Of a DNA stretch of 64,000 nt, positions 3,176-53,874 are shown in pieces. The translations under genes were made by a program, and so were the position numbers. The stretch spans positions 18,290 through 82,289 of the forward strand of contig JAEEQN010000002.1 of the NCBI GenBank assembly GCA_016285345.1. The letters run 5' to 3'. Position 1 is the first letter of the stretch. Every line of letters begins with the position of its first letter. This DNA is from Victivallales bacterium (lineage in GTDB: Bacteria > Verrucomicrobiota > Lentisphaeria > Victivallales > UBA1829). A model generated the notes under the pieces. The model was not told where the DNA came from and ran no database searches. It saw nothing but the letters and a program-made list of their open reading frames with translations.

Positions 3176-6130
3176 ATGCGCAAAGCCATTTGCGGTCTGC
3201 TGTTCTTTTTGCTGACTGCCCTGCCGTTCCTCTGCGGAGCCTGGGAGACCAGACAGGCCGTCGACAAAGACGGATTCACCTACGAATACATCCCCGACGA
3301 TCCGTTCTCCACGCGCACCTACGTGCTGGAGAACGGCCTGAAGGTGTTCCTCTCCCGCAACACACTCGAACCCCGCATCACCTCGCTGATCTCCGTGCGT
3401 ACGGGCGGAGCCGATGATCCGGAAGCCTCGACCGGCCTCGCCCACTACTTCGAACACATGATGTTCAAGGGCAACGGCGTGCTGGCGTCGCTGGACTGGG
3501 AAAAGGAGGCTCCGCTGCTGGACAAGCTCGCGGAGCTTTTCGACCAGTACCGCAAGGAAACCGACACCGAAAAGCGCGCGGCCATCTACCGCGAGATCGA
3601 CAAAGTCTCCGGCGAGGCGGCCAAGTATTCCAACGATGAATACTGGACGCTCGTGCGCGGGCTCGGCGCGACCGACACCAACGCCTGGACCGGATACGAC
3701 GAGACGGTCTACATCAACAACATCCCGTCCAACGCGCTCGACAAGTATCTCTACCTCGAATCCGTGCGTTTCTCCTCCATTGCGCTCCGCAGATTCCACA
3801 CCGAACTCGAAGCCGTCTACGAGGAGTTCAACCGTTCCCAGAACAATGACGCCCGCCGCGCTTCCACCGCGCTCCGCAAAGAGCTTTTCAAGTCGCATCC
3901 GTACGGCCGCGACATCCTCGGGTTGCCGGAACACCTGAAGAGTCCGTCCATGAGCGACATCTCGCTTTTCTTCTTCGAGTATTACCAGCCTGCGAACATG
4001 GCGATCATCCTGGCCGGCGACCTCAATTATGAGGATGCCATGCGTTCCGTCCGCAAGTGTTTCGGCGTGTTCCGCACCGACACGGCCAAACAGCAGGAGG
4101 CCCGCAGGATTCTCGGCGAAAGCGGACGCGTCCGCCGCGAAGAGCCCATCGAATCCGTCCGCACCGCGGAAGTGTTCGGACCCGATGCCGAAAGCATCCA
4201 GCTGGCGTTCCGGTTCGAGGCGGACCGCGACACGGAAGTCATGCTGGAGATGATCAACAATATTTTGAATAACAACCTGTGCGGCATCATGGAACTGAAC
4301 CTGGAACTGCCGCGCAAGGTGATGTCCGAATCCAGCGGCGTCCACGCCATGCGCGATTATCTGCTGCACGTTTTCGCGGCGGAACCGGCGCAGGGCAAGA
4401 CGCTCGAAGAGACGCGCGACCTGATCCTCGGCGAGCTCGAAAAACTCAAACGCGGCGAGTTCCCCGACTGGCTGCCCGGCGCGATCGTGAACAACCAGCG
4501 CATGTCGCTCATCACGGTCTCCGAGGACGCCTCCACCGCCGCGCACGTGCTGAACAACGCGTTCATCGAGGGGCGTCCGCTGGTCGACCAGCTGAACGAC
4601 ATCGACGCGATGGAGAAGATCACGAAGGAGCAGATCACCGAGTTCGCGAAGAAGCACTACCGCGACAACTACGTGATCGTCTACAAGCGTCAGGGCGAGG
4701 CGAAGGATATCGTAAAGGCCGTGAAGCCTCCGATCACGCCCGTGCCCGTCCACGAGGATCTTTCCGAGTTCGGACGCAATTTCGAACTCCTCCCCGTCGA
4801 ACCTGAAAACGGCCCGGTTTACGCCGATCTTGAAAAAGACCTGCACATCACGCCGCTGGCCGACGGCATCACCCTTTTTACCTCCAAAAACGACATCAAC
4901 GAGCGGTTCTCCCTCTCGCTCCAGTTCCTCGTGGGAACGCGCATGGACAAGGAACTCGCGCTCGCGCTCGGCTGGATCGACGAGCTCGGCACCGACAAGT
5001 ACACCGCCGAGGAACTCCGCCAGGAATGGTTCAAGCTCGCCGCACGCATGGGGACGTTCGTGGAGACCGACCGCTGCGGCCTCACTCTGAGCGGCCTCCA
5101 GCGCAATTTCAAGGAATCCCTCGCGCTCTTCAACCACGTGATCTCCAACGTGAAGGCCGACGCGGAATCGTACAAGACGCTCGTCGACGCCGTCGAGAAG
5201 AGCCGTGCCGACCGCAGGTCGAGCCGGAGCTCGCGTCTTTCCGCCGCGTCCGGTTACGCGATCTACGGCGGCCCGGAGAACTATTCCGCCGACATCCTGC
5301 CGGTGAAGAAAATGCGCGAGATCGACCCCGAAAAGCTGATCGAGCGCGTCCACGGCCTGCGCGGATTCACGCACGACGTGGTGTATTACGGCCCCGTCGA
5401 CGACAAGGAAGTCAAGGAACTCCTGAGCGATGTCATCGACAAAAACGGCGCGCCCGGCACGTTCCCGAAGACGCGGTTCTTCCAGGCGGTCGAGCCGGAA
5501 GAAGATATGGTCTATGTGGTGGATTATCCCGGCGCGGCGCAGGCGGAGATCGAGGTCATCCGCCTCGACGGGAAATACAAGGAAAAGCCGTATGATTTCG
5601 AGGACATCTATTCCACGCTCGAATCCCGCACGTTCATGAACGAACTGCGCGAACGCCAGGCGCTGGCTTATTCGGTCGGCGCGGGGTATTCCAACCCCGG
5701 ACGCGACCCGAACGGCTATTCCATGTCCTACGGCGCGATCGGAACGCAACACGACAAGTTCTATACCTCGCTCGACGGCGTGCTCGCGCTGCTGAATAAT
5801 CCGGAAACCGGAGCCGCCGCGGCGTTCGAGTCCTCGCGCCAGAACCTGCTTTCCCAGTACCGCAATGTCCGCGTCCAGAAGGAGAACTACTACGGCGTCC
5901 GCCGCACGATGAAGAAGTTCGGCCTGAAGGAGGAGTCGCGCAAGACCGCCTACGAAGGACTGCTCAAAATGAGCATGGAACAGTATCTTGACGAGGCGAA
6001 AACGCGCGTCGCCGGAAAGAAGAACATCATCCTGATCCTCGCCGACCTGAAGCAGATCGACCAGGAGGGGCTCAAAAAGTACGGCAAGGTCCGCATTCTG
6101 GCGCTGGATGAACTCTTCCCGAACGACTGA
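3176..6130 (+). CDS. Secreted M16 (insulinase/pitrilysin family) zinc peptidase
   Basis: 984 aa with a signal peptide. The inverted zinc motif HxxEH is present as GLAHYFEHMMFKG. The length fits a tandem active plus inactive M16 half. Confidence 0.85.
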   Translation: MRKAICGLLFFLLTALPFLCGAWETRQAVDKDGFTYEYIPDDPFSTRTYVLENGLKVFLSRNTLEPRITSLISVRTGGADDPEASTGLAHYFEHMMFKGNGVLASLDWEKEAPLLDKLAELFDQYRKETDTEKRAAIYREIDKVSGEAAKYSNDEYWTLVRGLGATDTNAWTGYDETVYINNIPSNALDKYLYLESVRFSSIALRRFHTELEAVYEEFNRSQNNDARRASTALRKELFKSHPYGRDILGLPEHLKSPSMSDISLFFFEYYQPANMAIILAGDLNYEDAMRSVRKCFGVFRTDTAKQQEARRILGESGRVRREEPIESVRTAEVFGPDAESIQLAFRFEADRDTEVMLEMINNILNNNLCGIMELNLELPRKVMSESSGVHAMRDYLLHVFAAEPAQGKTLEETRDLILGELEKLKRGEFPDWLPGAIVNNQRMSLITVSEDASTAAHVLNNAFIEGRPLVDQLNDIDAMEKITKEQITEFAKKHYRDNYVIVYKRQGEAKDIVKAVKPPITPVPVHEDLSEFGRNFELLPVEPENGPVYADLEKDLHITPLADGITLFTSKNDINERFSLSLQFLVGTRMDKELALALGWIDELGTDKYTAEELRQEWFKLAARMGTFVETDRCGLTLSGLQRNFKESLALFNHVISNVKADAESYKTLVDAVEKSRADRRSSRSSRLSAASGYAIYGGPENYSADILPVKKMREIDPEKLIERVHGLRGFTHDVVYYGPVDDKEVKELLSDVIDKNGAPGTFPKTRFFQAVEPEEDMVYVVDYPGAAQAEIEVIRLDGKYKEKPYDFEDIYSTLESRTFMNELRERQALAYSVGAGYSNPGRDPNGYSMSYGAIGTQHDKFYTSLDGVLALLNNPETGAAAAFESSRQNLLSQYRNVRVQKENYYGVRRTMKKFGLKEESRKTAYEGLLKMSMEQYLDEAKTRVAGKKNIILILADLKQIDQEGLKKYGKVRILALDELFPND

Positions 6131-37695: not shown

Positions 37696-37751
37696 AAAAA
37701 GTGGTGCACCCGGCGGGGCTCGAACCCACCACCTACTGCTCCGGAGGCAGT
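37696..37751 (-). repeat. att direct repeat, left copy: 3'-terminal 50 nt of tRNA-Arg plus 6 nt of flank
   Basis: 56/56 nt identical to 51498-51553 (aaaaagtggtgcacccggcggggctcgaacccaccacctactgctccggaggcagt). Confidence 0.9.
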
Positions 37752-37791
37752 GTGTCTTAAACTCAAAAATGGCTTAAGAAGGTGGTTTTTT

Positions 37792-37813
37792 CACGATTTT
37801 TCCACGATTCGTG
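37792..37813 (+). repeat. Arm-type-site-like motif pair (CACGATTTTTCCACGATTCGTG) near the left att
   Basis: The same ACGATTTTTC word recurs at 37953-37962, 51405-51444 (three tandem copies) and inverted at 51220-51243. Confidence 0.55.
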
Positions 37814-38022
37814 TTTGAAAAAGACCAAAATGTAAAGTATAGTATCCCTGTGATTCAAACCATATCAACCCTTCTGTTGTCCGGCATGGAGGTTGGGGGG
37901 TGCGAGTGATAGAGCATGAACGAGGGGCACCTAACTCCGTATTATTATAGCACCATTTTACGATTTTTCAAGCATCGAAATCATAAAGCCGGACAACGGG
38001 GATAAAAAACAAGGAGTCAATC

Positions 38023-39357
38023 ATGGTAAGACAACGGCGGCAGGGCGGAGCATGGTACTATCAGTTTATCCGAGGCGGCAAAGCATACCGTGGGTGTTGC
38101 GAGGGCGCGACAACTAAACGCGAAGCGGAAAGCTACGAAAGGGAAATCATCGCGACGGTGGAGAGCGCAGCCAAGCAGAAAACGGTAAAGGCGCTACTCG
38201 ACAATTTCAGAGAAGAATTGACCGGGGGCGAGAAGATCACCCTTAATGAAGCATTTGAACTGGCCGAACAGAAACCTCGTTCTCGGATTCCCGCCGAGAA
38301 GTATGCTGCAACGAAACGGGCCGTGTGGAACGATTTTCTGGCGTTCATGCGAGGCGAGCACCCGGATATCGAAAATCTGATCGACGTAACGGGAGCGCAT
38401 GCACAGGAGTACATCGCTCTCCTTCAGAAGTCAGGGCGGTATCAAAAGACCGTCAGCTATAGTCGTGGGGCGGGCCGGGGAGCAAGAACCATCATCACGC
38501 AGGCCGCTGATGGTGCATTGTCGGCGAGGACCGTCCGGCTTCATCAAACTGTATGTGCCGAGGTGTTCACGCTGCTTGCGAAGGACGCCGGATTGCAGGA
38601 AAATCCCTTTTCCGGGATCCGAATGATGAAGTCGGACACAGAGACGCGCGAAGCTTTCACTCCAGACGAACTCAAGACCATCTACGACAACCTCGACGAC
38701 TTCACTCGCCCGCTGTTCATGATGGCAGTATGGACGGGTTTTCGTGAGGGCGACATCTGCACGCTCAAATGGAGCGAAGTTGACCTCGTTCGTCGTTTGA
38801 TTACGCGGAGGACGCGCAAAACCAAAGTCGAGGTGCAGATCCCCATATCGAACCAGCTCTACGGGCTGTTGACCGCTACACCACGAACAGAATCCGAGTT
38901 TGTTTTTCCGAAACACGCCGAAATGTATCTGTCGAACCCAGACGGGGTCTCCTACAGAGTGAAGAGGTTTCTTGAGGGGCTGGGGATCGAGACAACTCGA
39001 ATTCCGGAAGGTCGGACGCGGGCAATCAGTGTGAAGGACCTCCACTCATGCCGCCACACATTCTGTTACTACGCCGGACTTGCGGGGATTCCTCTCGCGG
39101 TCGTTCAATCCATCGTCGGGCACATGAGCCCGGAGATGACGAAGCACTACTCGGCCCACGCTTCCATCGAGGACAAGCGGCGCGGCATGGAGCGTCTTTC
39201 ATTCTTCACGCAGGATGCGCTTCCAGAAGCGAAAGCAGACGAACCGGAACGGATAGAACTCCGGCAGCGGATCGAGACTCTGCCGATAGATACAGTCCGC
39301 GCTGTGCTCCAGTTTTTAAATGCACAGGGAATGACTGTTCAGATGGAGTTATTCTAA
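38023..39357 (+). CDS. Tyrosine recombinase / phage-type integrase
   Basis: The C-terminal catalytic region has WTGFREGDICTLKW (Arg I), HSCRHTF (HxxR), VGHMS and TKHY (Tyr nucleophile). The N-terminal SAM-like domain is typical of tRNA-targeting integrases. Confidence 0.9.
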   Translation: MVRQRRQGGAWYYQFIRGGKAYRGCCEGATTKREAESYEREIIATVESAAKQKTVKALLDNFREELTGGEKITLNEAFELAEQKPRSRIPAEKYAATKRAVWNDFLAFMRGEHPDIENLIDVTGAHAQEYIALLQKSGRYQKTVSYSRGAGRGARTIITQAADGALSARTVRLHQTVCAEVFTLLAKDAGLQENPFSGIRMMKSDTETREAFTPDELKTIYDNLDDFTRPLFMMAVWTGFREGDICTLKWSEVDLVRRLITRRTRKTKVEVQIPISNQLYGLLTATPRTESEFVFPKHAEMYLSNPDGVSYRVKRFLEGLGIETTRIPEGRTRAISVKDLHSCRHTFCYYAGLAGIPLAVVQSIVGHMSPEMTKHYSAHASIEDKRRGMERLSFFTQDALPEAKADEPERIELRQRIETLPIDTVRAVLQFLNAQGMTVQMELF

Positions 39358-39717: not shown

Positions 39718-40440
39718 TTATGCGATGACGGTCCACTCCATGCTGACGCCGTAGCCGAGGACGTTCCACTGGGTAGTGTCGCCGGAGGCGTAGTAGCCGA
39801 GCATGCCGGTGGAATACTGACGGACCAGGAGATCGTCCTGCTGATCGCCGTTGTAATCGCCCGCGCCGACGACGAACCAGTCCTCGGCATCCAGCTGATC
39901 GAGGCTAATGTACTTGCCTTCATCGGCAATACCGTCGGCAATCATGACCATGGAGCCGGATTCCTTGTGGAACAGGACCAGATCGTCTTTGCCATCACCC
40001 TTGAAGTCGCCGATGGCACGGACTTCCCAGCCAGACCAGTTGGCGGAGCCGAGCGAGGCCGAGGTGCCGTCGAGGTTGGCCGCGTAGAAGTACGTGCCAT
40101 TCGCGCCGGACATCACGATGGAGTCCTTGCCGTCGCCGTCGAAGTCACCGCAGCCGACCAGCGTCCAGTCGTCGCCGCCGAAGTTGCCGGAGAGAGAGAC
40201 CCAGTCCTCCTTGCCGTCTTTCCACGCACCGAGCGAGTAAAGCTCAGGCGCGTACCAGACGATGGAGTTCACGCCGGACGCATTGCCCGTGAGGTTGCCG
40301 ACCGCGTTCTTCCAGTCGATGTTTTTCTCGTTCGTGAGGTAACCGATGTTCACCCAGGTGGAGCCGTCCGGGAGGTCGTTCGAGTCGGCGTAATACCCGA
40401 TGTACGCGCCTTTGATCCCGGCATCGCTCGGACTCCGCTG
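39718..40440 (-). pseudogene. FG-GAP/VCBS-repeat protein fragment lacking an N-terminus
   Basis: GDFDGDGKDSIV, GDFKGDGKDDLVLF and GDYNGDQQDDLLV repeats. The frame stays open upstream of the listed GTG (40353) to a stop at 40441-40443, with no ATG or signal peptide. Confidence 0.55.
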
Positions 40441-40543
40441 TTAGGCTTTGGCGCTCCCGTTGCGGCTCCTGCGCCTCAGGGTGGCTTCAGCGGCGGAAAG
40501 GACATTGCTCTTTCATCCGTGCCGACTTAAAATTCCCTTTCCG

Positions 40544-41950
40544 TTACCAATCCATTCCATTTTGACAATATGAATCATCCGTGAAACTTGTTACTCCATA
40601 TTCCATCAATTCCTTCAATGATACGGCATTTTTTGAACTTGTAATCGTGTAGCATCCACATTGAAAACCAACAGCAAGCACAGAAGCTACGTATGCCGAA
40701 TCAATCGTGTTGATACTTTTTTCTGACACAATCCGTGTTTTTGTCAGGTCAATATTGTTTCTCTGTACAAATTCTGTCAATTCTGGCAGTGTAACGTAAC
40801 TGTCCCCGTGTTCCCCGGTATATCCCTCAATTTCTTCACCAAACACATCAAATGCCGTCTGAAGTATGCTTTCATCAAACGCTTTCACATGAAACTTTTT
40901 CAGCAGTCCATGTTTCATCAGCATAGACTTTACAGATTGCCACTGTTCCGTTGTAAGCGCAGGATGGGTGCTGAACATCGGACTCATTCCGTACCTTGCG
41001 CAGATCGCAAAGAAATCGTCAACCGTCAGAATCTTTGTTCCTGTCCAGTATGCGTTTTTATATCGTCCGAAATCCCATTCAAGCAGTTGTGCATATGTCA
41101 TATCGGAAACCCCCATTTTCGTTGACGGGGGATTCCCTTCCGCATCCCGTGCCGTTGCGTTGATCGTATCATCATGGATGCACACAAGCACACCGTCAGA
41201 CGTTGCCTTCGGAACAACGATACACACTGGGTATCCAAGCAGTCCTGCCATTTCAACCGCCGGACGGGTATTTTCCGGGCACAATTGACGGAATCCGAGA
41301 TGAGAACAGAAAATCGGTCTTGCGTCGGCCACTGTCGGATTGTATACCGCTTCCTCGCTGAACAGATAATCAATCGCAACCGTTACGTCTGCCCCAACCG
41401 TAATGGTGATTGTTGTTGTGTCCTGACTTAATGCAGGCGGTATTCTCCACGAATGTATTTCGTATTCGCTCCCATAACTGATATTGTAAACAGGAGAAGA
41501 GTACAATCCATTCTGGAATGTGATGGCAGCATTGCCGCCAGTGCATTTTGCACGGCATCTGACAATCTGCGGAAACGGCGATCTTGTTGTCAGCGTATAT
41601 CTTTGTGTACTCTTCCCGGTCAATGTAACATTGCGGAGTTTAATCCCTCTATACATATCGCCGATAATTCCGAACAGATATTCTTCCTTTTCTCTTGCGG
41701 TATAGTCTTTTGCATCCTTATTCAGTTTCTCTGCCTCTTCTACTGTCACGACAGGCACAGCGGCGGGATTGCCCATTTCTTCGGGTTTCGTTTCGGGAAC
41801 AGAGACTGCCGGTTTCCTGTCGGTCGCGGGGCTTTCGCTTTGAACCGTCTGAACAACAGCATTATCATGGCGATTGAATTCCTTGCAGCCGACAACAAGG
41901 AAAACAATCAAGGTAACTGTTATTGAAATCGGAGCGATCAGTCGTTTCAT
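40544..41950 (-). CDS. Lipoprotein with a C-terminal glycerophosphodiester-phosphodiesterase-like (GDPD) domain
   Basis: Lipobox LVVGC. SHLGFRQLCPENTRPAVEMA...SDGVLVCIHDDTINATARD resembles the GDPD H-R-G/ENT/..DG..V..HD motifs, although partly substituted. The gene is markedly AT-richer than its surroundings. Confidence 0.55.
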   Translation of the reverse strand: MKRLIAPISITVTLIVFLVVGCKEFNRHDNAVVQTVQSESPATDRKPAVSVPETKPEEMGNPAAVPVVTVEEAEKLNKDAKDYTAREKEEYLFGIIGDMYRGIKLRNVTLTGKSTQRYTLTTRSPFPQIVRCRAKCTGGNAAITFQNGLYSSPVYNISYGSEYEIHSWRIPPALSQDTTTITITVGADVTVAIDYLFSEEAVYNPTVADARPIFCSHLGFRQLCPENTRPAVEMAGLLGYPVCIVVPKATSDGVLVCIHDDTINATARDAEGNPPSTKMGVSDMTYAQLLEWDFGRYKNAYWTGTKILTVDDFFAICARYGMSPMFSTHPALTTEQWQSVKSMLMKHGLLKKFHVKAFDESILQTAFDVFGEEIEGYTGEHGDSYVTLPELTEFVQRNNIDLTKTRIVSEKSINTIDSAYVASVLAVGFQCGCYTITSSKNAVSLKELMEYGVTSFTDDSYCQNGMDW

Positions 41951-43184: not shown

Positions 43185-43901
43185 ATGAAAAAAACTAATG
43201 TGCTTGTCCTCGCTGGGCTAGCACTCGCTGTCCTTTTGGCTGCAGCCGGTATGCGTACCAATAGGACAACCACAAAATTCGCCGGAAATGCCTCCAGCCT
43301 TACGGAACTGGATCAGCGTGCGCGTCCATTCTTCGAGGAAGCCGAGAAAAGCATTCCGAATGTCGTCTCGGAACTCAGCGGCACTCAGGAGTTCCTGAAC
43401 ATGTGTGGACTGGCCGTTGTCGACAAGATCAGCGGTTCAAACAAGATGGAGCAGAAACTCGCTTCCGTGATAGACGGTTCGATTCTGGCCCCGTGTCGAA
43501 AGGGAGCCTCCGTCTACGGGTGCAACATCAATCCGGTTTTGGCTCGTGGCTCTCTGTCGGACCTTCATCGGGACGCGATGACTTCCGTTCTCTATGCGTC
43601 AGGGGGATTGGCTCTGGAAGCGGCATTCCTGAAGACGACCTTGAAGTCGGTGCAATGCGTCATTGGTCCGATCGCGGAAAAAAACGCCGCGAAAATCGGA
43701 ACTGGAGCCACACTTGCCGCAGCTGACGGGCCGCTCCCCATTGGCGACACCATCGGTGTCATTCTGGCTGTCGGTGGTTCCGCGTGGTCAGTTCATGACC
43801 TGCTTGCTCTTCGTCGAGACCTGCCGGGCGCAATTTCTGCCGCACTCCGGCAGGCAATCCAGGAGTATTGGAAACAGTGCAGATTGGAGGCCGCTCAATG
43901 A
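43185..43901 (+). CDS. Hypothetical secreted/membrane protein
   Basis: 238 aa. AGGAG RBS. N-terminal signal anchor (VLVLAGLALAVLLAAAG). Gly/Ala-rich hydrophobic C-terminal segment. Confidence 0.6.
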   Translation: MKKTNVLVLAGLALAVLLAAAGMRTNRTTTKFAGNASSLTELDQRARPFFEEAEKSIPNVVSELSGTQEFLNMCGLAVVDKISGSNKMEQKLASVIDGSILAPCRKGASVYGCNINPVLARGSLSDLHRDAMTSVLYASGGLALEAAFLKTTLKSVQCVIGPIAEKNAAKIGTGATLAAADGPLPIGDTIGVILAVGGSAWSVHDLLALRRDLPGAISAALRQAIQEYWKQCRLEAAQ

Positions 43902-44239
43902 AGACTCTCCTGATTCTGTTACTGGCCCTGATGACGGGCTTCGTTTCCGCCATGCCTGCGCGCCGCCCCTATCGGAAGCCGCTGAAGCCCGCCCGTGTCG
44001 TGGAGACAAACCGACCTGTCTCATGGAAGGCCGTGGCCGCCGCTGGAGCCGCCGCCACAGGCGTGGTAGCGGCCTACAAAATCGGGTCCGGCGTTGAGGA
44101 CGGCTTGTCTACCACAGCCAAAGAAGCCCCCGTGGCGTTCCTCAGCTCGATCACGCTGTCATCGCTCTTCATCCCCCTGATCACTGTCGTGGGCATCCCT
44201 GTCGTCGGATATCTGATCTGGCAGAAACTCTCAAATTAA
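43898..44239 (+). CDS. Small membrane protein (signal peptide plus C-terminal TM)
   Basis: ATGA overlap with the upstream stop. MKTLLILLLALMTGFVSA signal sequence. C-terminal TM LFIPLITVVGIPVVGYLIW. Confidence 0.55.
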   Translation: MKTLLILLLALMTGFVSAMPARRPYRKPLKPARVVETNRPVSWKAVAAAGAAATGVVAAYKIGSGVEDGLSTTAKEAPVAFLSSITLSSLFIPLITVVGIPVVGYLIWQKLSN

Positions 44240-44261: not shown

Positions 44262-45803
44262 ATGGAAATCTCTTTGAACAAAACCGAGCTGACCGGAGCG
44301 CTTCCTGCCTTGGGGAAACTTGTCTCCCGGACGTCCCTTATCAAGGCGTATCAGGCGATCCAAATCGAAGGTAGGGCGCACACGCTCTTCTTCCGTACCC
44401 GCAACGTCGTCGAAGGAATCGAATTCCGAATGGACGCCGATTTGGAAGATGACTTTCCTGCGGTTCTCGTAGAATTCGAGCAGTTCCGACTGGCCGTCCG
44501 CAACAGCAAGAAAAAAACGCTGGACCTGGAAGTCGAGAATGGCGAGGTCTTCATTGATGACGTCATGCTCGCACCTGTGAACGGACACTTTCCCGTGCCA
44601 GAGAACATCCCGGATCAGGATGCCACGGTTACGGAACTGCCCGCCGACACGCTGGCCGCGCTGTCACTGCTTGCCCCGCTCACAGACAAAGGGCAGGACA
44701 TTCGCAAGGTTCTCGGCGGAATCAACATCAGCCGGGACGGGCTCACCGCGACCAACGGCAAGGAGCTGTCGAATATCCCGCTCTCACTGGAGATGACCGG
44801 TAACGTCACGATTCCGTTCCCGCTCGCTCTGCTTGCCACAAAAGCATTCGGCGAATCCGGCAGGCTCACGACCTGGCAGAAGGACGAGGACACGCGCTTC
44901 GAGCTTTCGCTTGGTAACTGGACCTGGCGGGCGAAGGCGTACAAAGAGAACTACCCGAACTGGAAGCTCGTCGTGCCGGACCGGACAGAGGCCACGCACT
45001 ATGTGAGCTTCCAGGACGACCGCGCCGAACTGCTCCAGCGTTACCTAAAAAGCGTTCCTGACGACCCGCAGAACAACAACGGCATCAAGCTGAGCCGTCT
45101 CGAAGTCCCGGACAACCTTCATCTGGAAAGTTCGAACGGGATGCTGTTCAGCGTTCTCGCCGAATTCGACGATGCTTGGGGCGACCTGAGTTTCACCGTC
45201 AGGAAAGAATTCCTCCTGCATCTGCTGAACGCCGGACACCGGAAGATCGAGCTCAACGATGCCTACGGTCCGATTGTCGGAACTGGTGGCAATGGCGAAT
45301 ATATCGCCATGCCTATCATCACCAAAAGACCGCAAGCTCAAACCGAGCAGAAGCCGGAAGAGACCGCATCCAGCCAGACGGATACAAACGTTGCTGTTCA
45401 GGCTGAACAGACCGCACCTCAACCCATTCCCGAACAAACGGAATCCGTCACCGAGCAGATTCCGAATCACGAACAGGAAACATCCCCCACAAACAAAACC
45501 AATACCACACCCTCAACGAAGGAAAACACCACCATGATCGACACCAACACCATCACGCACGTCGTGTCTGCCCCCGTGCAGACGTCCGCCCAGAACAACA
45601 AACCCGAATCCAAGTTGAACCCGATGGACGAACTGATCATCAGCATCGAAGCGTTCAAGGCCAAGCTCAAGGCCATGGTCGATGAATCCACCGCCATGAG
45701 CCGTAAGGTCTGCGAGGTCGCCATCTCCCAGAGGCAGAAGGAACGCGAGTACGCGCGGACGAAGAAGACCATCGAAAAAATCCGGGTGGCCAGCGGCTTC
45801 TGA
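44262..45803 (+). CDS. Divergent DNA polymerase III beta sliding-clamp (DnaN)-like protein with a C-terminal extension of about 140 aa
   Basis: Collinear by eye with E. coli DnaN: ISLNKTELTGALPALGKLV / FTVEREHLLKPLQQVSG; HFPVPENIP / DFPNLDDW; LTATNGKEL / VATDGHRLA; ENYPNWKLVVP / GRFPDYRRVLP; GEYIAMPI / AAYVVMPM. This is followed by a Thr/Pro/Gln-rich linker and a coiled coil. Confidence 0.65.
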   Translation: MEISLNKTELTGALPALGKLVSRTSLIKAYQAIQIEGRAHTLFFRTRNVVEGIEFRMDADLEDDFPAVLVEFEQFRLAVRNSKKKTLDLEVENGEVFIDDVMLAPVNGHFPVPENIPDQDATVTELPADTLAALSLLAPLTDKGQDIRKVLGGINISRDGLTATNGKELSNIPLSLEMTGNVTIPFPLALLATKAFGESGRLTTWQKDEDTRFELSLGNWTWRAKAYKENYPNWKLVVPDRTEATHYVSFQDDRAELLQRYLKSVPDDPQNNNGIKLSRLEVPDNLHLESSNGMLFSVLAEFDDAWGDLSFTVRKEFLLHLLNAGHRKIELNDAYGPIVGTGGNGEYIAMPIITKRPQAQTEQKPEETASSQTDTNVAVQAEQTAPQPIPEQTESVTEQIPNHEQETSPTNKTNTTPSTKENTTMIDTNTITHVVSAPVQTSAQNNKPESKLNPMDELIISIEAFKAKLKAMVDESTAMSRKVCEVAISQRQKEREYARTKKTIEKIRVASGF

Positions 45804-45883: not shown

Positions 45884-46360
45884 ATGCTCAAACTCAATGC
45901 ATCCTACAGCAAGAAAATCCCCGCACAATCTGAGTATTCTTCTCAGTCCTACCACGCCTCAGTCGAGGTCGAGCTTCCTGATGGACTCACGACCGAACAA
46001 TTGAATGCGAAGATCCACGAGACATTCGCGCTCGTCCGCGACAGCGTGGAAACGGAACTGCACGGAAACACGGTTCAGCAGTCCGCTCCGATCCCCCAGA
46101 CCTCGAACGCGCAGCCCCAACCGGGTCTGTACGAAAACCAGCCGCAAAACGCGTCGAAGCCCATCTACGGCAAGAAGAACGGCACGACCTCGGACGCTCC
46201 CGCTTCTCCCAAGCAGGTCAAGTACCTCCTTGATCTCGCCCGCCAGTTCGGAATCAATCCGGAGCAAATCAAGGCCAAGTTCAACGTGCCAGCGCTCGAA
46301 AGTCTAACGAAGACGCAGTGCAGCCGTGCCATTGATGAGCTCAACGGAAAGGCGGCCTGA
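45884..46360 (+). CDS. Hypothetical island protein
   Basis: 158-aa ORF with an RBS. Gln/Pro-rich middle section. The C-terminal ASPKQVKYLLDLARQFGINPEQI...LTKTQCSRAIDEL looks like a small helical DNA/protein-binding module. No assignment made. Confidence 0.55.
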   Translation: MLKLNASYSKKIPAQSEYSSQSYHASVEVELPDGLTTEQLNAKIHETFALVRDSVETELHGNTVQQSAPIPQTSNAQPQPGLYENQPQNASKPIYGKKNGTTSDAPASPKQVKYLLDLARQFGINPEQIKAKFNVPALESLTKTQCSRAIDELNGKAA

Positions 46361-46361
46361 T

Positions 46362-47153
46362 ATGGAACGCACAATTGAAACTGTCCGCGAGGCACCGCAC
46401 TGGTCGTACAGCTCGTTGCAGCTTTTTTTGAACTGCCCCTTGCGTTACTACTTCCGGTACGTTGAAAAAGCTGAGGTGGAAAGGACAAGTGTAAGCCTGC
46501 CGTTCGGGCGGGCTTTCCACGCCGTCTTGAGCCTTCGCGCGGAGAAAGGCTCGGTTTACAGCGCCGAGGACGCGAAAGAAGACTTTGCCGTGTACTTCCG
46601 AGGCGAAACCGAGGTCAGCGAGAACCTGACGTACAAGCAGGATGAGGACTATTGGTTCTGGGAACAGCGCGGATGCGACATGCTGGAGGTCGCTTTTGCA
46701 GAATGGCCGGACGATTATTCGGTCAAATCTGTGGCGGAGGCGTTCAGCGTGGACGTTCCAGGACTGAGCAAGCCTCTCATCGGCGAGTTCGATCTCGTCG
46801 TTAATGACGGCGGGGACGAAACGATCTGCGATTTTAAAACGGCGTCGACGAAGTGGCCGACCGGGAAAGCTGACAGAGATCTGCAGGCGACTGCCTTCTC
46901 ATTCGCATATCAGAAGCGCCACGGCAAAATCCCGATCTTCCGCTTCGACGTCTTCACGAAGGCGAAGAATCCGGTTCACCAGCAACTCTACACGCTCAGG
47001 ACGAACGATGATTTCGACCGTTTCGTCTACCTCGCCAACAAAATTGAGGCGGCAGTGAACACCGGCATCTTCCTCCCGGTAGAATCGTGCATGAACTGTG
47101 CTGAATGCGCCTACGGGGACCGCTGCAAAGCGGTCCACAGAAAGGCGGCGTAA
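46362..47153 (+). CDS. PD-(D/E)XK nuclease of the Cas4/RecB(AddB) type with a Fe-S cysteine cluster
   Basis: N-terminal FLNCPLRYYF, FDLVV...ICDFKT (D..(D/E)xK core) and C-terminal CMNCAECAYGDRC. Start taken at ATG 46362, 1 nt after the upstream stop. Confidence 0.7.
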   Translation: MERTIETVREAPHWSYSSLQLFLNCPLRYYFRYVEKAEVERTSVSLPFGRAFHAVLSLRAEKGSVYSAEDAKEDFAVYFRGETEVSENLTYKQDEDYWFWEQRGCDMLEVAFAEWPDDYSVKSVAEAFSVDVPGLSKPLIGEFDLVVNDGGDETICDFKTASTKWPTGKADRDLQATAFSFAYQKRHGKIPIFRFDVFTKAKNPVHQQLYTLRTNDDFDRFVYLANKIEAAVNTGIFLPVESCMNCAECAYGDRCKAVHRKAA

Positions 47154-47154
47154 C

Positions 47155-47883
47155 ATGGGACTGATTATGCAGGAAGGCAAATACGTCAGCCGTGATGAAG
47201 TCGCGTGTATCGACACCCCAAGTTCGACTGAAACATGGAGACCTGTGCCGCACATTGATGTCATCGAGGCCGTAACCGAAGTTGTCAAGGCTCACCGCTG
47301 GGATATTGCGGACGAACGGTTCGGCCTCGCCAGCGAAGGACAGAAGATGTTCGGCGTCATGGAAATCTCCCGTTCATCTTCGCCTCAATGGCATCGCTGT
47401 ATCGGCATCCGCAACAGCCACGACAAAACCCTTGCCGTTGGACTGTCTGCCGGAATCGTCGTTCTTGTCTGCTCCAACCTCGCTTTCGGCGGAACCACCG
47501 TCATCAAGCGCAAGCACACCAGCCGGTTTGAACTGACCGATCTGATCGACCGTGCCGTGGCATCGCTGGAGGACGACTTCCTGATGACCGAAACCGTGTG
47601 CGAGGACCTGAAGGACATCCACCTCAAAAACGATGACGAAGCCCGGAGTAGCATTGTGCGTGCTGCCGAGCTCGGCGTCATCAATTCCTGTGACATTCTT
47701 CCGGTCTACCGTGAATTCAAGTCCCCGTCACATGCCGAGTTCAAGGAGCCAACACGATGGAGCCTGTTGAATGCATTTACGGAAACCGTGAAGAAGTACA
47801 CGCCTCAGCGTGTGGACCACAGCTATCTCGCCCTGAACCGGGCGTTCGGGCTGGACGGTCGCCCTGCCGCCATCTTCACCTGA
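47155..47883 (+). CDS. DUF932-family protein (phage/plasmid-associated)
   Basis: IGIRNSHDKTLAVGLSAGIVVLVCSNLAF and the overall length resemble DUF932/TIGR03299 proteins. Start at ATG 47155, just after the upstream TAA. Confidence 0.6.
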   Translation: MGLIMQEGKYVSRDEVACIDTPSSTETWRPVPHIDVIEAVTEVVKAHRWDIADERFGLASEGQKMFGVMEISRSSSPQWHRCIGIRNSHDKTLAVGLSAGIVVLVCSNLAFGGTTVIKRKHTSRFELTDLIDRAVASLEDDFLMTETVCEDLKDIHLKNDDEARSSIVRAAELGVINSCDILPVYREFKSPSHAEFKEPTRWSLLNAFTETVKKYTPQRVDHSYLALNRAFGLDGRPAAIFT

Positions 47884-48760: not shown

Positions 48761-49105
48761 ATGAGCAACATGCTCGAACATACGCCCCAAAACGGGGAGA
48801 CAACGGACGGCCTCAAATCGGTCGTTCCGCAGAACGTACTGGATATCATCCGGTGCGCCATCTCGCCGTACCCCGTCCCTTGGAGCAGAATCCGTAATGC
48901 TATCTTATCAGAAGAGGACGGCAATTCAAAGTCTATTCTGCCAGATGATCTCATGGACACCGCAGAGGCCATTAAGGCTCTGAAAATCTCGCGTGTCACA
49001 CTTCATCGTCGTGTGCGGGAAGGAACCATCCCCGTACACAAATTAGGACGCAGAAATCTCTATTCTCTGAAGGAGATAAGGGAAGTCCTGCAGGTGGAGA
49101 ACTAA
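48761..49105 (+). CDS. Excisionase/AlpA-family helix-turn-helix DNA-binding protein
   Basis: LMDTAEAIKALKISRVTLHRRVREGTIPVHKLGRRNLYSLKEIREVL matches the excisionase-family HTH pattern. AGGAG RBS at 48750-48754. Confidence 0.7.
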   Translation: MSNMLEHTPQNGETTDGLKSVVPQNVLDIIRCAISPYPVPWSRIRNAILSEEDGNSKSILPDDLMDTAEAIKALKISRVTLHRRVREGTIPVHKLGRRNLYSLKEIREVLQVEN

Positions 49106-49407: not shown

Positions 49408-51029
49408 ATGCAAAACAAAACAACCAATATCCATGCGCCGAGGGACAACTCCCACGGTGCGAACACCCCTGGCTCAGACCAGTCTTCGGACACCGAGAAT
49501 CGTACCAAGCTCTCGCGAGAAGTCCAGACCGACCGGATCAAGCAATTTCCCGAAGAATCGGGAATTGATACGGAACGGTGTAACAATCGCGTTGAGAATG
49601 ACACGACCGCTTCGGCGTACGACTGGCTGCCCAAGCCGATCAAATACAACTCCAAAACGCGCGAGGACCAGACCGACAGGTGTATTCTCCGCAATGGGAA
49701 ACAGGGAAGTGCGCCTGAAACACTGCCGAAGAAAGAGAGCGTGAAAACGGCAGCCAAGCACAACCCGCAAATCGGACAGCAGAATACCAGACAGACTGAC
49801 TCCTTCTGGACCGGTGGTTCTGAACGCTCCGGCAGTTCATCAAAGCAGAAACACAAACAGCGGTACTATGATCCGCTAATCGGAAATCATGTCATCCCGA
49901 TCATCTGGAATCATGACCTCCTGGAACGAATCGCGGACAGGGACAATCTCCTACAAGCAATCGCCTTCTTAGCCCGTCACAAGGAGAAAACTCCTGGTCC
50001 GGACCACAAGAGCGTGGAGGAGACCTGCATCATGCTTTCCGATCCGGAGAACCTGGAACGCCTTCGGCAACAGCTTCTTCAGGAAACATACCGACCCGGT
50101 AATGTCCAATCAACACAAATCCCCAAATCCAACGGAAAGACGCGGCCCTTAAAGATCGCGACTGTGATGGATCGCTGCGTACAGCGTGCAATCCTACAGC
50201 AGGTAATCACGAACCTACCGAAGAATCCGTGGTGCCCCTACTCCTTTGCATACCACCACGGGCAAAACACGACCGACGCAATCGAAGAAGTCAACAGGAT
50301 CCGGGAAGAGGGATACAAGTACGCTATCGAACTGGACCTCGAGTCCTTCTTCGACAATGTACGGCATACCAGACTCCTGAAGAAACTCCGTAGACATATC
50401 GCCGATAAGAGGGTAGTCCGAATGATCTCTCACATCATATCGGCCCTTATCATCAATAATCACGGGGAGCTGACGAAAAACCGCAAAGGCACACCGCAAG
50501 GCTTCGCGATTTCCTCATGGCTCGCAGCAGACCTATACCTGGATGAAATGGATCAGGAAATGACACGGCGCAACCTGCGCTTCGTCCGTTTCGCTGACGA
50601 CATTACTATATTCACCCGCTCGAAGAAGTCGGCCAAGCGTGTCAAGGCCAGAATCATCGAGTTCACTGAAAACGTAATGGAATGTCCGGTCAACAAGAAG
50701 AAAACCAGAATCGTCACCATTGAGAACGTCTCCCCTCCCTCTTGGGAGTCGAACTCAGGGATGGCCACTGGAGAATCCTTCGCGAAAAGGTCCGCAACCA
50801 CTGCGGCGAATACATGAAGGACATAGCCAAGTATAAGAAAACGAAGAATGACTACTACATCCGCAAGGCAGCCCAGAGCATGCAGGGATTCATCGGCGGT
50901 TACACCAGGATTCCTGACATCTGCCTGAGACAAATTCGGGCACTGAGATGCTGGTGCATGAACAGGTGGTGGGCCACGGGTGAACGCAAGCTGTTCTTCG
51001 CCCAGAAACGCTGGATGGTGCCAGACTAA
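49408..51029 (+). pseudogene. Group-II-intron-type reverse transcriptase (RT plus thumb/X, no endonuclease domain), interrupted by a frameshift near 50735
   Basis: RT0 LLERIADRDNLLQA; RT2 IPKSNGKTRPLKIATVMDRCVQRA; RT4 LDLESFFDNVRH; RT5 GTPQGFAISSWLAADLYL; FADD; KTRIV. The thumb continues in the -1 frame (50742-51029: LGVELRDGHWRI...MQGFIGGY). The first roughly 165 codons are low-complexity and probably not genuine protein. Confidence 0.75.
49457..51029 (+). mobile_element. Group II intron-like retroelement remnant: 5' GUGCG, domain-I-like RNA and an intron-encoded RT; no domain V/VI recognised
   Basis: GTGCG at 49457-49461. GATACGGAAC (49567), GCGTTGAG (49589) and GTACGACTG (49617) occur in the same order and roughly the same spacing as GAUACGGGAAC/GCGAUGAG/GUACGACUG in Ll.LtrB domain I, as I recall that sequence. 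Confidence 0.4.
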
Positions 51030-51243: not shown

Positions 51244-51404
51244 TCCCCATTTCCACAATTGTCGTGGCGAATGATCGCTGCTGTTTTCAGCACGATGGGA
51301 CGTACCAGACAGGAACCGGAGGCATATCGCGGAAGGCTCGGTTTTCCACGGACATACATGAATGCTTGAGCAGGAAGGGCGAAAAATCTGAGCTCAAAAG
51401 CCTG

Positions 51405-51444
51405 CCACGATTTTTCCACGATTTTTCCACGATTTGTGTCACGA
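51405..51444 (+). repeat. Three tandem arm-type motifs (CCACGATTTTT x2, CCACGATTTGTGTCACGA) next to the right att
   Basis: ccacgatttttccacgatttttccacgatttgtgtcacga lies 54 nt from the direct repeat. Confidence 0.55.
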
Positions 51445-51497: not shown

Positions 51498-51553
51498 AAA
51501 AAGTGGTGCACCCGGCGGGGCTCGAACCCACCACCTACTGCTCCGGAGGCAGT
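51498..51553 (-). repeat. att direct repeat, right copy (inside the intact tRNA-Arg)
   Basis: Identical to 37696-37751. Confidence 0.9.
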
Positions 51554-51580
51554 CGCTCTATCCAAATGAGCTACGGGTGC
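51504..51580 (-). tRNA. tRNA-Arg (anticodon CCG)
   Basis: The reverse complement folds as a 77-nt cloverleaf: GCACCCG/TA/GCTC-ATTTGGATA-GAGC/G/ACTGC-CTCCGGA-GCAGT/AGGTG/GTGGG-TTCGAGC-CCCGC/CGGGTGC/A/CCA. Anticodon loop C-U-CCG-G-A. CCA is encoded. Confidence 0.9.
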
Positions 51581-51675: not shown

Positions 51676-53874
51676 TCAGAAGATGTTCGGGGCTGTGACG
51701 GTTGCAGTGACGTCGATCTTTTCGATGTAGTACCAGTCCTGGCTGGGGAGGTAGTTCACGCAATAGATGATACGGCGGCCGTTCTCGATGCGCGAGATCG
51801 TGCCGTATTTGGTCTCGGTGAACTGTTCGAAGAGGCCGGCGTCGTCGAAGCTGATGGTCAGGGAGTCTTCCTTGTTCGTTTCCGTGGCTCCGGCGAACCG
51901 GGCTCCGGTGGAGACCAGGATCAGCCCTTTGTTGTCCAGCAGGGTCTTTTCCAGGACGTTGTTCCCGACGTTGCCGTTCGTCTTCAGGTCGTGAATGATC
52001 GTGTTCAGGTGCAGGTCGAATCCGGCGACGCCGAGGAAATTGCCGGCGGTATCCAGCATGGGGACGTTGCAGGAGAGCAGATAGCCCGCGGCGGCGGTAT
52101 TGCCGGGGTAGGGTTTGCTCCAGGCGAATTCGCCGCTGCTGGACTGGGCGGTCTTGTACCAGTGGCGGCTGCGCGGATCGTAGCTTGATGCATAGACGCC
52201 GCTGCCGGGGTACACGACGTACTGGCCGTCGGGGAATCCGAAGAGCAGCAGATGAAGCGGGATGCCGTTGAGGCGGAGATATTCGTTCTTTTCGGCGTCG
52301 GAGGCGTCCGCGAGCTTTTCCGGCAGGCGTTCGCTGAAGACGCCCATGATCGTATCCTTCAGATGCGCCAGGATGTGCAGGCGGCGTTTCTCGACGGCGG
52401 TCAGTTCCTCTCCGTGGATGGTTTTGTGGGCGAAGTGCGAGAAATCGATCTTGCGGTGGTATACGGAGGAATACAGGAGCGAAGCGGGGGGATTGTTCGT
52501 GTCGCGGAGCGCGGAAACGGACATCATGCAGTCGGGGTTCGTTTCTCCGTCGTCCGGGTCGGTCTCGTAGAGGAAGACGAACTCCGAGGTGATGGACGAG
52601 AGGAACTGGGCGTTGCGCGCGATGTTCGTTTCGATGTAGTCGGCGCACGCGGTGGACTGGACCTGCGCGGTGGCGAGCTGCCGCGCGTATGCGTGAACCG
52701 CGTTAATCTGGCTGACGCGGCGGTAGGCTGTCACACCGATCGTGAGGAGCAGCATGAGGATGCAGACGACGGCGAACGCCAGCGAGGCGCGTTTGTGGTG
52801 GACGGCGAACGCGGAGATGCGCCCGAAAAGGTGATATGGGTTCGCGGAGGTCTCCTCGCCGCCCATGTAGCGGCGGATGTCGGCGCCCAGGTCGCGGACG
52901 TTCTGGTAGCGTTCGTCGCGGTTGTACGCGGTCGCCTTCGCGATGATCGCCTTCAGGTCGGGGTCGATCCTGAACCCGTATTTGTGGCGCGTTTCGGCGA
53001 TGCGGCCTTCGCGGATCATGGAGACGACCTCGGCGCTGGTGCGCGCCATGTAGGCTTCGCGGAGCGTGACGACCTCGAACAGAATGAGCCCGAGCGCGTA
53101 GATGTCCGCGCGCTGGTCGGTGTGTTCTCCCTGGATGGCTTCGGGCGACAGGAAACGCGGCGTGCCGGAGATCGTGCTTGGTTTTTCCCATGTGGCGGGG
53201 TCGTAACCGGGTTCTTCGATCTGGCGGGCGATGCCCCAGTCCATGATGTAGGTCTCGCGGAACTCGCCGATGAGGATGTTTTCCGGCTTGAGGTCGCAAT
53301 GCATGATGTTGCGGCTGTGGGCGTAGTCGAGGGCGTCGCATACGCGGAGCATGACCTCGAGGCGGAACATCAGGGACTTGCGTTCGTCGAACTGTCCGAT
53401 GCCGGCCTTGCGGTATTCGTAGTCGAGCTGGTCCAGATAGTCTTTCAGCGTCTTGCCGTCGACGAGCTTCATCACGAGGTGGAGCCCGTCCTTGTCGTCC
53501 GAGTTCAGCGAATAGATCGGGATGATCGCGGGGTGGCTGAGCTGGGCAGTGACGCGCGCCTCCTGGATGAACTGGCCGCGCGTGAACTGGTCCTCGGGCT
53601 GCGATTTGAGCGTCTTGATCGCCACGGGACGGCGGAGGTTCAGGTCGAGCCCCTCGCGGATGATGCCCTGTCCGCCTTCCGCGAAGACTTTGCCCTGCCG
53701 GTATTCCGCGTCGATGGGCTCCAGCTTGACGTCCAGCCGGTCGTCGAACCGGACGGTGGAGTGGTCCACGTGCGTGAACGTGACGGTGGTGTCCTGTTCG
53801 CGTCCGAGGTTCTTCAGCCCGACCCTGATCGAGGTTACGGTATGGACTTTGCCTGATGTCGCGCCCCGGCTCAT
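51676..53874 (-). CDS. Ser/Thr protein kinase (Hanks type) with a TM segment and a C-terminal extracytoplasmic Cache domain
   Basis: VAIKTLK (catalytic Lys), HCDLKPENILI, MDWGIA, GTPRFLSPEA. One TM (LAFAVVCILMLLLTIGVTAY). YDPRSRHWYKTA is the Cache hallmark. Confidence 0.85.
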   Translation of the reverse strand: MSRGATSGKVHTVTSIRVGLKNLGREQDTTVTFTHVDHSTVRFDDRLDVKLEPIDAEYRQGKVFAEGGQGIIREGLDLNLRRPVAIKTLKSQPEDQFTRGQFIQEARVTAQLSHPAIIPIYSLNSDDKDGLHLVMKLVDGKTLKDYLDQLDYEYRKAGIGQFDERKSLMFRLEVMLRVCDALDYAHSRNIMHCDLKPENILIGEFRETYIMDWGIARQIEEPGYDPATWEKPSTISGTPRFLSPEAIQGEHTDQRADIYALGLILFEVVTLREAYMARTSAEVVSMIREGRIAETRHKYGFRIDPDLKAIIAKATAYNRDERYQNVRDLGADIRRYMGGEETSANPYHLFGRISAFAVHHKRASLAFAVVCILMLLLTIGVTAYRRVSQINAVHAYARQLATAQVQSTACADYIETNIARNAQFLSSITSEFVFLYETDPDDGETNPDCMMSVSALRDTNNPPASLLYSSVYHRKIDFSHFAHKTIHGEELTAVEKRRLHILAHLKDTIMGVFSERLPEKLADASDAEKNEYLRLNGIPLHLLLFGFPDGQYVVYPGSGVYASSYDPRSRHWYKTAQSSSGEFAWSKPYPGNTAAAGYLLSCNVPMLDTAGNFLGVAGFDLHLNTIIHDLKTNGNVGNNVLEKTLLDNKGLILVSTGARFAGATETNKEDSLTISFDDAGLFEQFTETKYGTISRIENGRRIIYCVNYLPSQDWYYIEKIDVTATVTAPNIF

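Follow-up and report, generated by a model that had tools for sequence, protein, structure and literature searches.

A divergent beta-sliding-clamp homologue with a predicted coiled-coil tail in an integrative island of a Victivallales bacterium

Why would an integrative island carry a sliding clamp of its own, and one with a long C-terminal extension? Sliding clamps are normally housekeeping factors of the host or of a phage, and their partners dock onto them by short motifs. The question is raised by a stretch of 64,000 nucleotides (nt) from a Victivallales bacterium (GenBank assembly GCA_016285345.1, contig JAEEQN010000002.1), referred to here as the window, in which an ATG-initiated open reading frame (ORF) at 44262..45803 on the plus strand encodes a protein of 513 amino acids (aa). 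This protein consists of a clamp core (residues 1–352), a disordered linker, and one C-terminal helix. An original prediction, made from the DNA letters and their translations, had described it as an island-encoded and very divergent relative of the beta clamp DnaN with a tail that DnaN lacks. New in our alignments is that the peptide-binding cleft holds the most conserved positions of the core, that the tail is the most conserved segment of the protein, and that a putative internal translation start is conserved in the family. The internal start, the conservation of the tail, and the CP4-57-like backbone of larger related islands were overlooked in that earlier description.

Fold and conservation of the clamp core

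Three DnaN-like domains were delineated in the core (44262..45317, plus strand) by profile searches, AlphaFold2, Foldseek, and hhalign. The best profile match, to family phrog_947 (“DNA polymerase processivity factor”) of PHROG, a collection that sets no curated cutoffs, had E = 3.8e-17 and aligned residues 1–351 with positions 3–362 of 368. The NCBIfam model TIGR00663 (dnaN) matched at E = 1.4e-10 and 40.7 bits, against an equivalog cutoff of 137.65 bits, and no Pfam family, the DNA_pol3_beta domains included, was found for the clamp at E ≤ 0.1. Because the protein falls below these curated thresholds, it is a distant paralogue and not a DnaN equivalog. An alignment of 12 family sequences, compared with Escherichia coli DnaN by hhalign (probability 98.9%, 342 columns), placed positions 1–353 against 1–365 of 366. 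The AlphaFold2 model, built on the same 12-sequence alignment, had a predicted local distance difference test (pLDDT) score of ∼90 over residues 1–352. When this model was searched against the PDB with Foldseek, the best 50 matches listed were all bacterial DnaN proteins (E ∼1e-21, target template modeling score 0.72–0.80, 13–19% identity), in alignments of ∼380 columns that therefore cover all three clamp domains. Phage DnaN-like clamps were recovered from the viral structure library BFVD at E ∼1e-20, and a sequence search of the PDB with the clamp gave no match. Homology to beta clamps over ∼350 aa is far beyond chance, and the core is predicted to adopt a divergent three-domain beta-clamp fold. 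The original prediction had called the N-terminal part very divergent and collinear with DnaN across three domains, and this holds for residues 1–352; the fold search with the monomer model returned a complete clamp, and neither the absence of a clamp fold nor a single domain was seen. The two landmarks named in that prediction are likewise present, YIAMP (residues 347–351) aligning with YVVMP (359–363) of E. coli and FP (110–111) with its DFP.

Conservation within the core was measured as per-position entropy after aligning 88 divergent family members with E. coli DnaN. Eleven positions of the peptide-binding cleft are identical to or conservatively exchanged with those of E. coli, and they rank among the top 1–9% most conserved of the core. 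The pairs, with the window protein named before E. coli, are R148/R152, L151/L155, T164/T172, G166/G174, L169/L177, P232/P242, W234/Y244, V237/V247, P337/S346, M350/M362, and P351/P363. Judged by this alignment, no part of the core is better conserved than the cleft, which answers in the affirmative the earlier suggestion to check the clamp-binding pocket. Conserved basic residues K7, R80, R148, K194, K225, and K235 align with R7, R80, R152, R205, K235, and R245 of E. coli, on the DNA-facing helices that line the ring of the E. coli clamp. The core carries a net charge of −16, compared with −11 for E. coli beta. A conserved cleft and conserved basic residues in an acidic core would fit a clamp that encircles DNA and still docks canonical clamp-binding motifs.

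The protein thus resembles DnaN in its fold, which is collinear from end to end, in its conserved cleft, in the aligned basic residues of its inner helices, and in being acidic overall. It differs in that it is only 13–19% identical to solved clamps, lies below all curated thresholds, evolves rapidly, bears ∼160 additional C-terminal residues (linker plus coiled coil), and is encoded in an island cassette bounded by attachment (att) sites instead of the dnaA-dnaN-recF context. The phage DnaN-like clamps of phrog_947 are also beta-clamp homologues of mobile elements. Most of those listed have 320–395 aa and no tail, with a few reaching 440–470 aa, whereas the tailed family resides in integrase-bearing chromosomal islands with no virion genes among the annotated neighbors.

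The family is large. In a protein collection clustered at 90% identity we found at least 480 clusters at E ≤ 1e-3, the best 120 of which are 68–92% identical over their full length, and a HMMER search of representatives clustered at 50% identity recovered 435 proteins at E ≤ 1e-3, 174 at E ≤ 1e-10, and 51 at E ≤ 1e-30. Members down to ∼20% identity retain the clamp core, a variable low-complexity linker, and the C-terminal helix. A second large protein search, with a divergent alignment, brought up scarcely anything beyond these close homologues. According to genome records, the hosts of the family are uncultured Lentisphaerota/Victivallales of the rumen and gut; the relatives in these genomes were found by an alignment-based scan, a scan with the single protein having given none. 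Using tblastn with the clamp, no match was found in 72,556 plasmid or 50,697 phage records. Family members are annotated as “hypothetical protein” by NCBI and automatically as “DNA polymerase III sliding clamp” in IMG, and full-text literature searches found no description of the tailed-clamp family or its cassette. The tailed clamps of Lentisphaerota islands appear to be an unstudied family. The rumen metagenome-assembled genome RUG12414 holds three copies of the clamp cassette on three contigs (loci L002, L003, and L005), whose clamps are 70–74% identical to that of the window, which indicates several related islands per genome.

The linker, the coiled-coil tail, and a nested start

As the original prediction held, the core is followed by a Thr/Pro/Gln/Glu-rich linker and a helical tail that have no counterpart in DnaN. 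The linker was assigned to residues 353–452 (45318..45617, plus strand) from pLDDT values below 50, which the model shows over residues 355–450, and from alignments. Its residues 355–424 (70 aa) include 15 T, 10 Q, 10 E, and 8 P; its length differs among homologues, and the DNA that encodes it is A/C-rich and nearly devoid of G. The tail (residues 453–513 and the stop codon; 45618..45803, plus strand), delimited by AlphaFold2 and alignments, is modeled as one 58-residue helix from 454 to 511 with a pLDDT of ∼90. Hydrophobic residues at positions 455, 458, 462, 465, 469, 472, 476, 479, 483, 486, 497, 500, 504, 507, and 510 give an unbroken 3–4 spacing over about eight heptads, a pattern characteristic of coiled coils. 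At two of the core positions the conserved residue is polar (Q490 and K493), and both lie inside a near-invariant QKQKER motif. Mean pairwise identity is 0.36 in the helix versus 0.24–0.31 in the three clamp domains, which makes the tail the most constrained segment of the protein. In ∼60 of 74 representatives of at least 400 aa the tail ends in hydrophobic residues (ASGF, VSGF, RMAI, RMAV, AVKL, or similar), the tip in the window being ASGF. Neither the tail nor the three other proteins of the cassette described below showed a conserved canonical clamp-binding motif, so that host proteins are the simplest ligands for the cleft. Conceivably, the C-terminal tip might itself serve as a pseudo-motif that binds the cleft of its own protein.

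Within the linker lies a candidate internal start, in which AAGGAA (45519–45524) is followed, after a 9-nt spacer, by the in-frame ATG of Met425 (45534–45536, plus strand); its use in the window would yield a tail protein of 89 aa. Position 425 is Met in 78 of 88 family members, though the linker is otherwise variable, and AAGGAR(G) precedes the in-frame ATG by 5–9 nt in 15 of 16 loci, including loci whose clamps are only 22–28% identical. The site resembles the Shine-Dalgarno sequences of the authentic gene starts of the island, and in 11 of 15 loci no other internal Met codon has a better anti-Shine-Dalgarno match (in the window it shares first place); only a weak site was seen in L018. In the AT-rich locus L016 (GC 0.33), where AAA and AAG encode Lys in a ratio of 42:14, the motif reads AAGGAGG and uses the rare codons AAG and GAG. 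The near absence of G from the linker DNA around the site likewise supports a real start. Across loci the predicted nested product would measure 82–96 aa, with a short peptide that contains Pro ahead of the coiled coil. A conserved AAGGAR motif and in-frame ATG within a variable linker indicate that translation probably also yields the tail on its own. Apparently split clamp genes, seen in two clusters, were considered as well and set aside, the breaks falling in domain I and not at the tail.

The architecture invites comparison with proteins of no common descent. SSB consists of a DNA-binding core, a disordered linker, and a conserved C-terminal tip, and herpesvirus UL42 and UL44 are processivity factors with long C-terminal tails. 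By analogy, the tailed clamp would share with them a DNA-tracking core, a long low-complexity linker, and a conserved C-terminal module with a hydrophobic end. It differs from them in that there is no homology and in that the module is a 58-residue coiled coil, not an acidic peptide or a nuclear-localization tail.

The clamp cassette and its island

Downstream of the clamp, and on the same strand, lie three genes with which it forms an operon-like cassette. The first, orf158 (45884..46360), encodes 158 aa, in which a low-complexity linker joins a conserved 60-aa N-terminal domain to a DUF3072-like helical domain at the C-terminus. The second (46326..47153, likely start ATG at 46362) encodes a Cas4-like PD-(D/E)XK exonuclease (PDDEXK_1, E = 2.4e-23) with an N-terminal Cys and a C-terminal CxxCxxCx6C cluster; it also matched TIGR00372 (cas4) at E = 1e-7, below that model's cutoff, as well as PHROG exonuclease families and PADLOC Cas4 models. 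The third (47098..47883, likely start ATG at 47155) encodes a DUF932 protein (PF06067, E = 3.7e-11) of the same family as YfjQ of the E. coli element CP4-57, 80–92% identical across close loci. Its structure model, from an alignment of near-identical sequences, reached a mean pLDDT of 46.8. Sequence searches of the PDB gave no significant match for orf158 and chance-level matches for DUF932 (best E = 0.35). Both likely starts lie 2 nt past the preceding stop codon, as placed by homologue alignments (those of the nuclease begin at residue 12–15) and Shine-Dalgarno-like sites. This spacing, together with the lack of any terminator-like site on the plus strand between the cassette genes, is consistent with one operon; promoter and terminator scans as such did not rise above chance.

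The order clamp, orf158 homologue, PD-(D/E)XK nuclease, DUF932 recurs in every related locus long enough to judge, with one or two small ORFs inserted between the clamp and the orf158 homologue in some. The operon with a small protein, a Cas4-like Fe-S nuclease, and DUF932 was thus found as originally predicted, and the proposed survey of co-occurrence turned up the same partners throughout these loci. Identity of the L016 and L024 proteins to those of the window is 22–28% for the clamps, 42–46% for the orf158 homologues, 40–46% for the nucleases, and 43–53% for the DUF932 proteins. An ORF upstream of the clamp in larger relatives (L024, 9265–9813) is laid out like orf158: a small domain at the N-terminus is joined by low-complexity sequence to a C-terminal A[ST]xxQ(I/V)xx(L/V)xx(L/I) helical domain that is weakly DUF3072-like. 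Three proteins of the region (orf158, the L024-type upstream ORF, and the clamp) bear long disordered linkers.

The cassette sits in a bounded element. Repeat finding detected a perfect 56-nt direct repeat (repeat family D1, unstranded) at 37696–37751 and 51498–51553, two 100% identical copies spaced by 13802 nt. The two copies bound the island, and the right one overlaps the 3′ part of a tRNA-Arg(CCG) gene (51504–51580, minus strand, 61.4 bits). Just inside the left copy is a tyrosine integrase gene (38023..39357, plus strand; Pfam Phage_integrase, E = 3.9e-21). The repeats, the tRNA overlap, and the integrase together define a 13.8-kb integrative island and bear out the earlier claim that the clamp is island-encoded. 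Its genes run in the order integrase, two low-GC cargo genes on the opposite strand, two small ORFs, clamp, orf158, nuclease, DUF932, a helix-turn-helix (HTH) protein of the HTH_17 family, and a reverse-transcriptase ORF. The absence of a polymerase and a clamp loader, also claimed originally, holds for DNA-dependent polymerases and for the clamp loader, and has to be amended for the reverse transcriptase.

This last ORF (49408–50817) has its reverse-transcriptase domain at residues 172–440 (RVT_1, E = 1e-34; PADLOC generic reverse-transcriptase model, E = 3.5e-59). It is missing from the related islands L001–L009 and is therefore probably cargo. Its first ∼170 aa are of low complexity, and its C-terminus looks, by eye, frameshifted, with a possible maturase-like ORF in another frame at 50742–51029 that had no Pfam match; an Rfam search found no group II intron RNA beside it. 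The HTH_17 protein (48761..49105, plus strand; PF12728, E = 2.7e-9) is AlpA/excisionase-like. The low-GC genes (39718–41950, minus strand, GC 0.45–0.50) encode an FG-GAP repeat protein and a 468-aa GDPD-like protein, and run opposite to the backbone genes of the island. Directly 5′ of the clamp, the two small ORFs of 238 and 123 aa (43185..44239, plus strand, overlapping at 43868–43901) had no match in Pfam, PHROG, or NCBIfam, and only in L007 and L008 do homologues of them lie upstream of the clamp. Next to each att copy, on its inner side (37786–37814 and 51400–51439), is a 29-nt repeat rich in TTTTTCCACGATT, tandemly duplicated at the right end; these repeats are candidate arm-type sites for the integrase or excisionase. 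Outside the island, a Ser/Thr protein kinase gene with a C-terminal dCache sensor domain (51676–53874, minus strand) adjoins the tRNA-Arg gene, and between positions 6000 and 15000 of the window the GC content falls to 0.45–0.55, against 0.60–0.65 in the flanks, which may mark another horizontally acquired region.

Larger relatives add a YagK/YfjJ-type Rep-like protein, encoded upstream on the opposite strand, as well as an AlpA-like HTH protein, a 777–810-aa AAA_25 helicase-like protein, a DUF4942 methyltransferase, and RadC after DUF932. They also carry variable defense cargo beside the cassette, including restriction-modification genes, SNF2/HEPN genes, and an MmeI-type enzyme. The Rep-like and helicase-like genes are present in L010 and L024 and, by tblastn, missing from the window. 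The record of E. coli CP4-57 lists intA, alpA, yfjI, yfjJ, yfjQ (DUF932), an antirestriction gene, and a RadC-like gene, and CP4-57/CP4-6-type elements have toxin-antitoxin genes among their island genes. With CP4-57 the larger relatives share the AlpA-type HTH, the large helicase-like protein, the YagK/YfjJ-like protein, and DUF932 followed by RadC, in a common order; the window island shares insertion at a small-RNA gene, an integrase, an AlpA-like gene, flanking repeats, and DUF932. CP4-57 differs in lacking the clamp, the orf158 homologue, and the Cas4-like nuclease, a trio that here stands directly upstream of DUF932, and in being hosted by Enterobacteria instead of Lentisphaerota. By its gene content, the window island is a reduced member of this CP4-57-like backbone type.

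Possible roles of the island clamp

The earlier proposal, that an appended domain lets the clamp recruit or hijack host replication or repair factors, fits the data. Going further, we infer, at about even confidence, that the protein is a functional beta-clamp paralogue that is loaded by the host and serves replication, repair, or establishment of island DNA. The host clamp loader would place the island clamp onto island DNA, and the conserved cleft would engage host polymerases along with that loader, so that an excised or newly arrived island would gain privileged access to processive synthesis. The coiled-coil tail could act as a dedicated adaptor both in its tethered, full-length form and as a free protein of ∼89 aa made from the internal start. 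Tails might pair with each other or with a cassette partner, and such pairing would couple the Cas4-like exonuclease, DUF932, and orf158 to clamp-marked DNA, with the free tail tuning or competing with the coupling. A bolder form of this would be a new kind of self-contained mobile “clamp toolbelt,” in which the clamp's own coiled-coil adaptor, also made alone as a regulator, takes the place of clamp-binding motifs in the partners and brings the nuclease and DUF932 to clamp-marked DNA; we offer this as a tentative and rather improbable proposal.

Several observations weigh against a host-loaded processivity ring. Residues aligned with the E. coli dimer interface are unconserved (I272/L273 correspond to D267/D268, and F106/L108 to D100/M102), a further difference from DnaN, in a region where the alignment is weak and uncertain at ∼15% identity. 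The clamp core evolves about twofold faster than its cassette partners, a pace uncommon in a housekeeping-type processivity factor and in keeping with conflict or a decoy. Because the window island lacks the Rep-like and helicase-like genes, any replicative role there would rely wholly on host or helper functions. The case for the internal start, finally, comes from sequence conservation, and the 87–89-aa “tail-only” proteins in databases, considered as products of a separate tail gene, were rejected as gene calls at contig ends. The three independent metagenome contigs examined for one of them, P0185 (L020–L022), all begin 27–36 nt upstream of the internal ATG; assemblies seem to break in the variable low-complexity linker and thereby to give rise to spurious “tail-only” entries.

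Some of these points would suit a decoy or hijacking clamp, whose cleft titrates or redirects host clamp-binding proteins (the Pol III alpha subunit, the delta subunit of the clamp loader, repair polymerases, MutL, or Hda-like regulators) or absorbs clamp-targeting toxins or phage inhibitors, and whose tail holds the captured factors or localizes the decoy. A cleft conserved above all else in a core that otherwise diverges quickly, the unconserved residues at the canonical dimer interface, and an island with no replication initiator or helicase of its own are all in line with this. There is also a precedent for mobile elements exploiting the host beta clamp, in insertion sequence (IS) transposases and TnsE of Tn7 (PMC4549789, PMC3971601, PMC4678854). 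A pure protein decoy, however, would have no need of the conserved DNA-facing basic residues, and in larger relatives the clamp gene is placed among replication and establishment genes. Its unvarying association with a nuclease and two proteins that look DNA-associated suggests, besides, that it acts on DNA. We judge a decoy unlikely.

Another reading is a clamp-guided nuclease cassette for defense or anti-defense. The clamp would load where the DNA of an invader, or of the host, has ends or primer-template junctions, and by its tail would recruit the Cas4-like exonuclease and DUF932 for degradation or processing of that DNA. The constant placement of a Cas4-like Fe-S exonuclease two genes downstream of the clamp and the rapid evolution of the clamp core agree with such a module, as does the restriction-modification, SNF2/HEPN, and MmeI-type cargo beside the cassette in related islands. 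According to a preprint (10.1101/2025.06.20.660599), exposure of Variovorax to phage was followed by selection of DUF932 variants. Still, the cassette is a constant part of the backbone while the defense genes around it vary, and it occupies the position of DUF932 in the CP4-57-type backbone, next to RadC and other establishment-type genes. In PADLOC, no defense-system model matched the clamp, orf158, or DUF932. A dedicated defense function seems doubtful to us.

Tn5 Inh is a truncated inhibitor, and by analogy an internal start that yields an interaction module alone might provide a dominant-negative regulator of a coiled-coil-assisted dimer or DNA bridge, in which the C-terminal coiled coil joins protomers whose head-to-tail interface is weakened, either as a second loop over the C-face or by holding two clamps on two DNAs, for instance in partition or pairing of island copies. 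The unconserved interface residues, the unbroken eight-heptad helix (the most conserved segment), and a linker of ∼100 aa, long enough to span the ring, would accommodate this, but the conserved polar a/d residues Q490 and K493 and the invariant hydrophobic tip suggest a specific partner over self-association, and we regard it as very unlikely, though it is compatible with a host-loaded clamp and does not exclude one.

If the host-loaded clamp paralogue is the correct reading, the tailed family would invert the usual logic of sliding clamps, in that the clamp itself bears a tethered adaptor while keeping a host-type docking cleft. The nested start would add to the replication-factor genes with two products, such as dnaX. 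Integrative islands would have a new means of capturing the host replisome or of bringing their own enzymes to DNA, and DUF932 (YfjQ/YafZ of E. coli), non-CRISPR Cas4-like nucleases, and CP4-57-type islands would be tied to a testable DNA transaction. The clamp toolbelt, if true, would give a first mechanistic handle on DUF932 and on the CP4-57-type islands that carry it.

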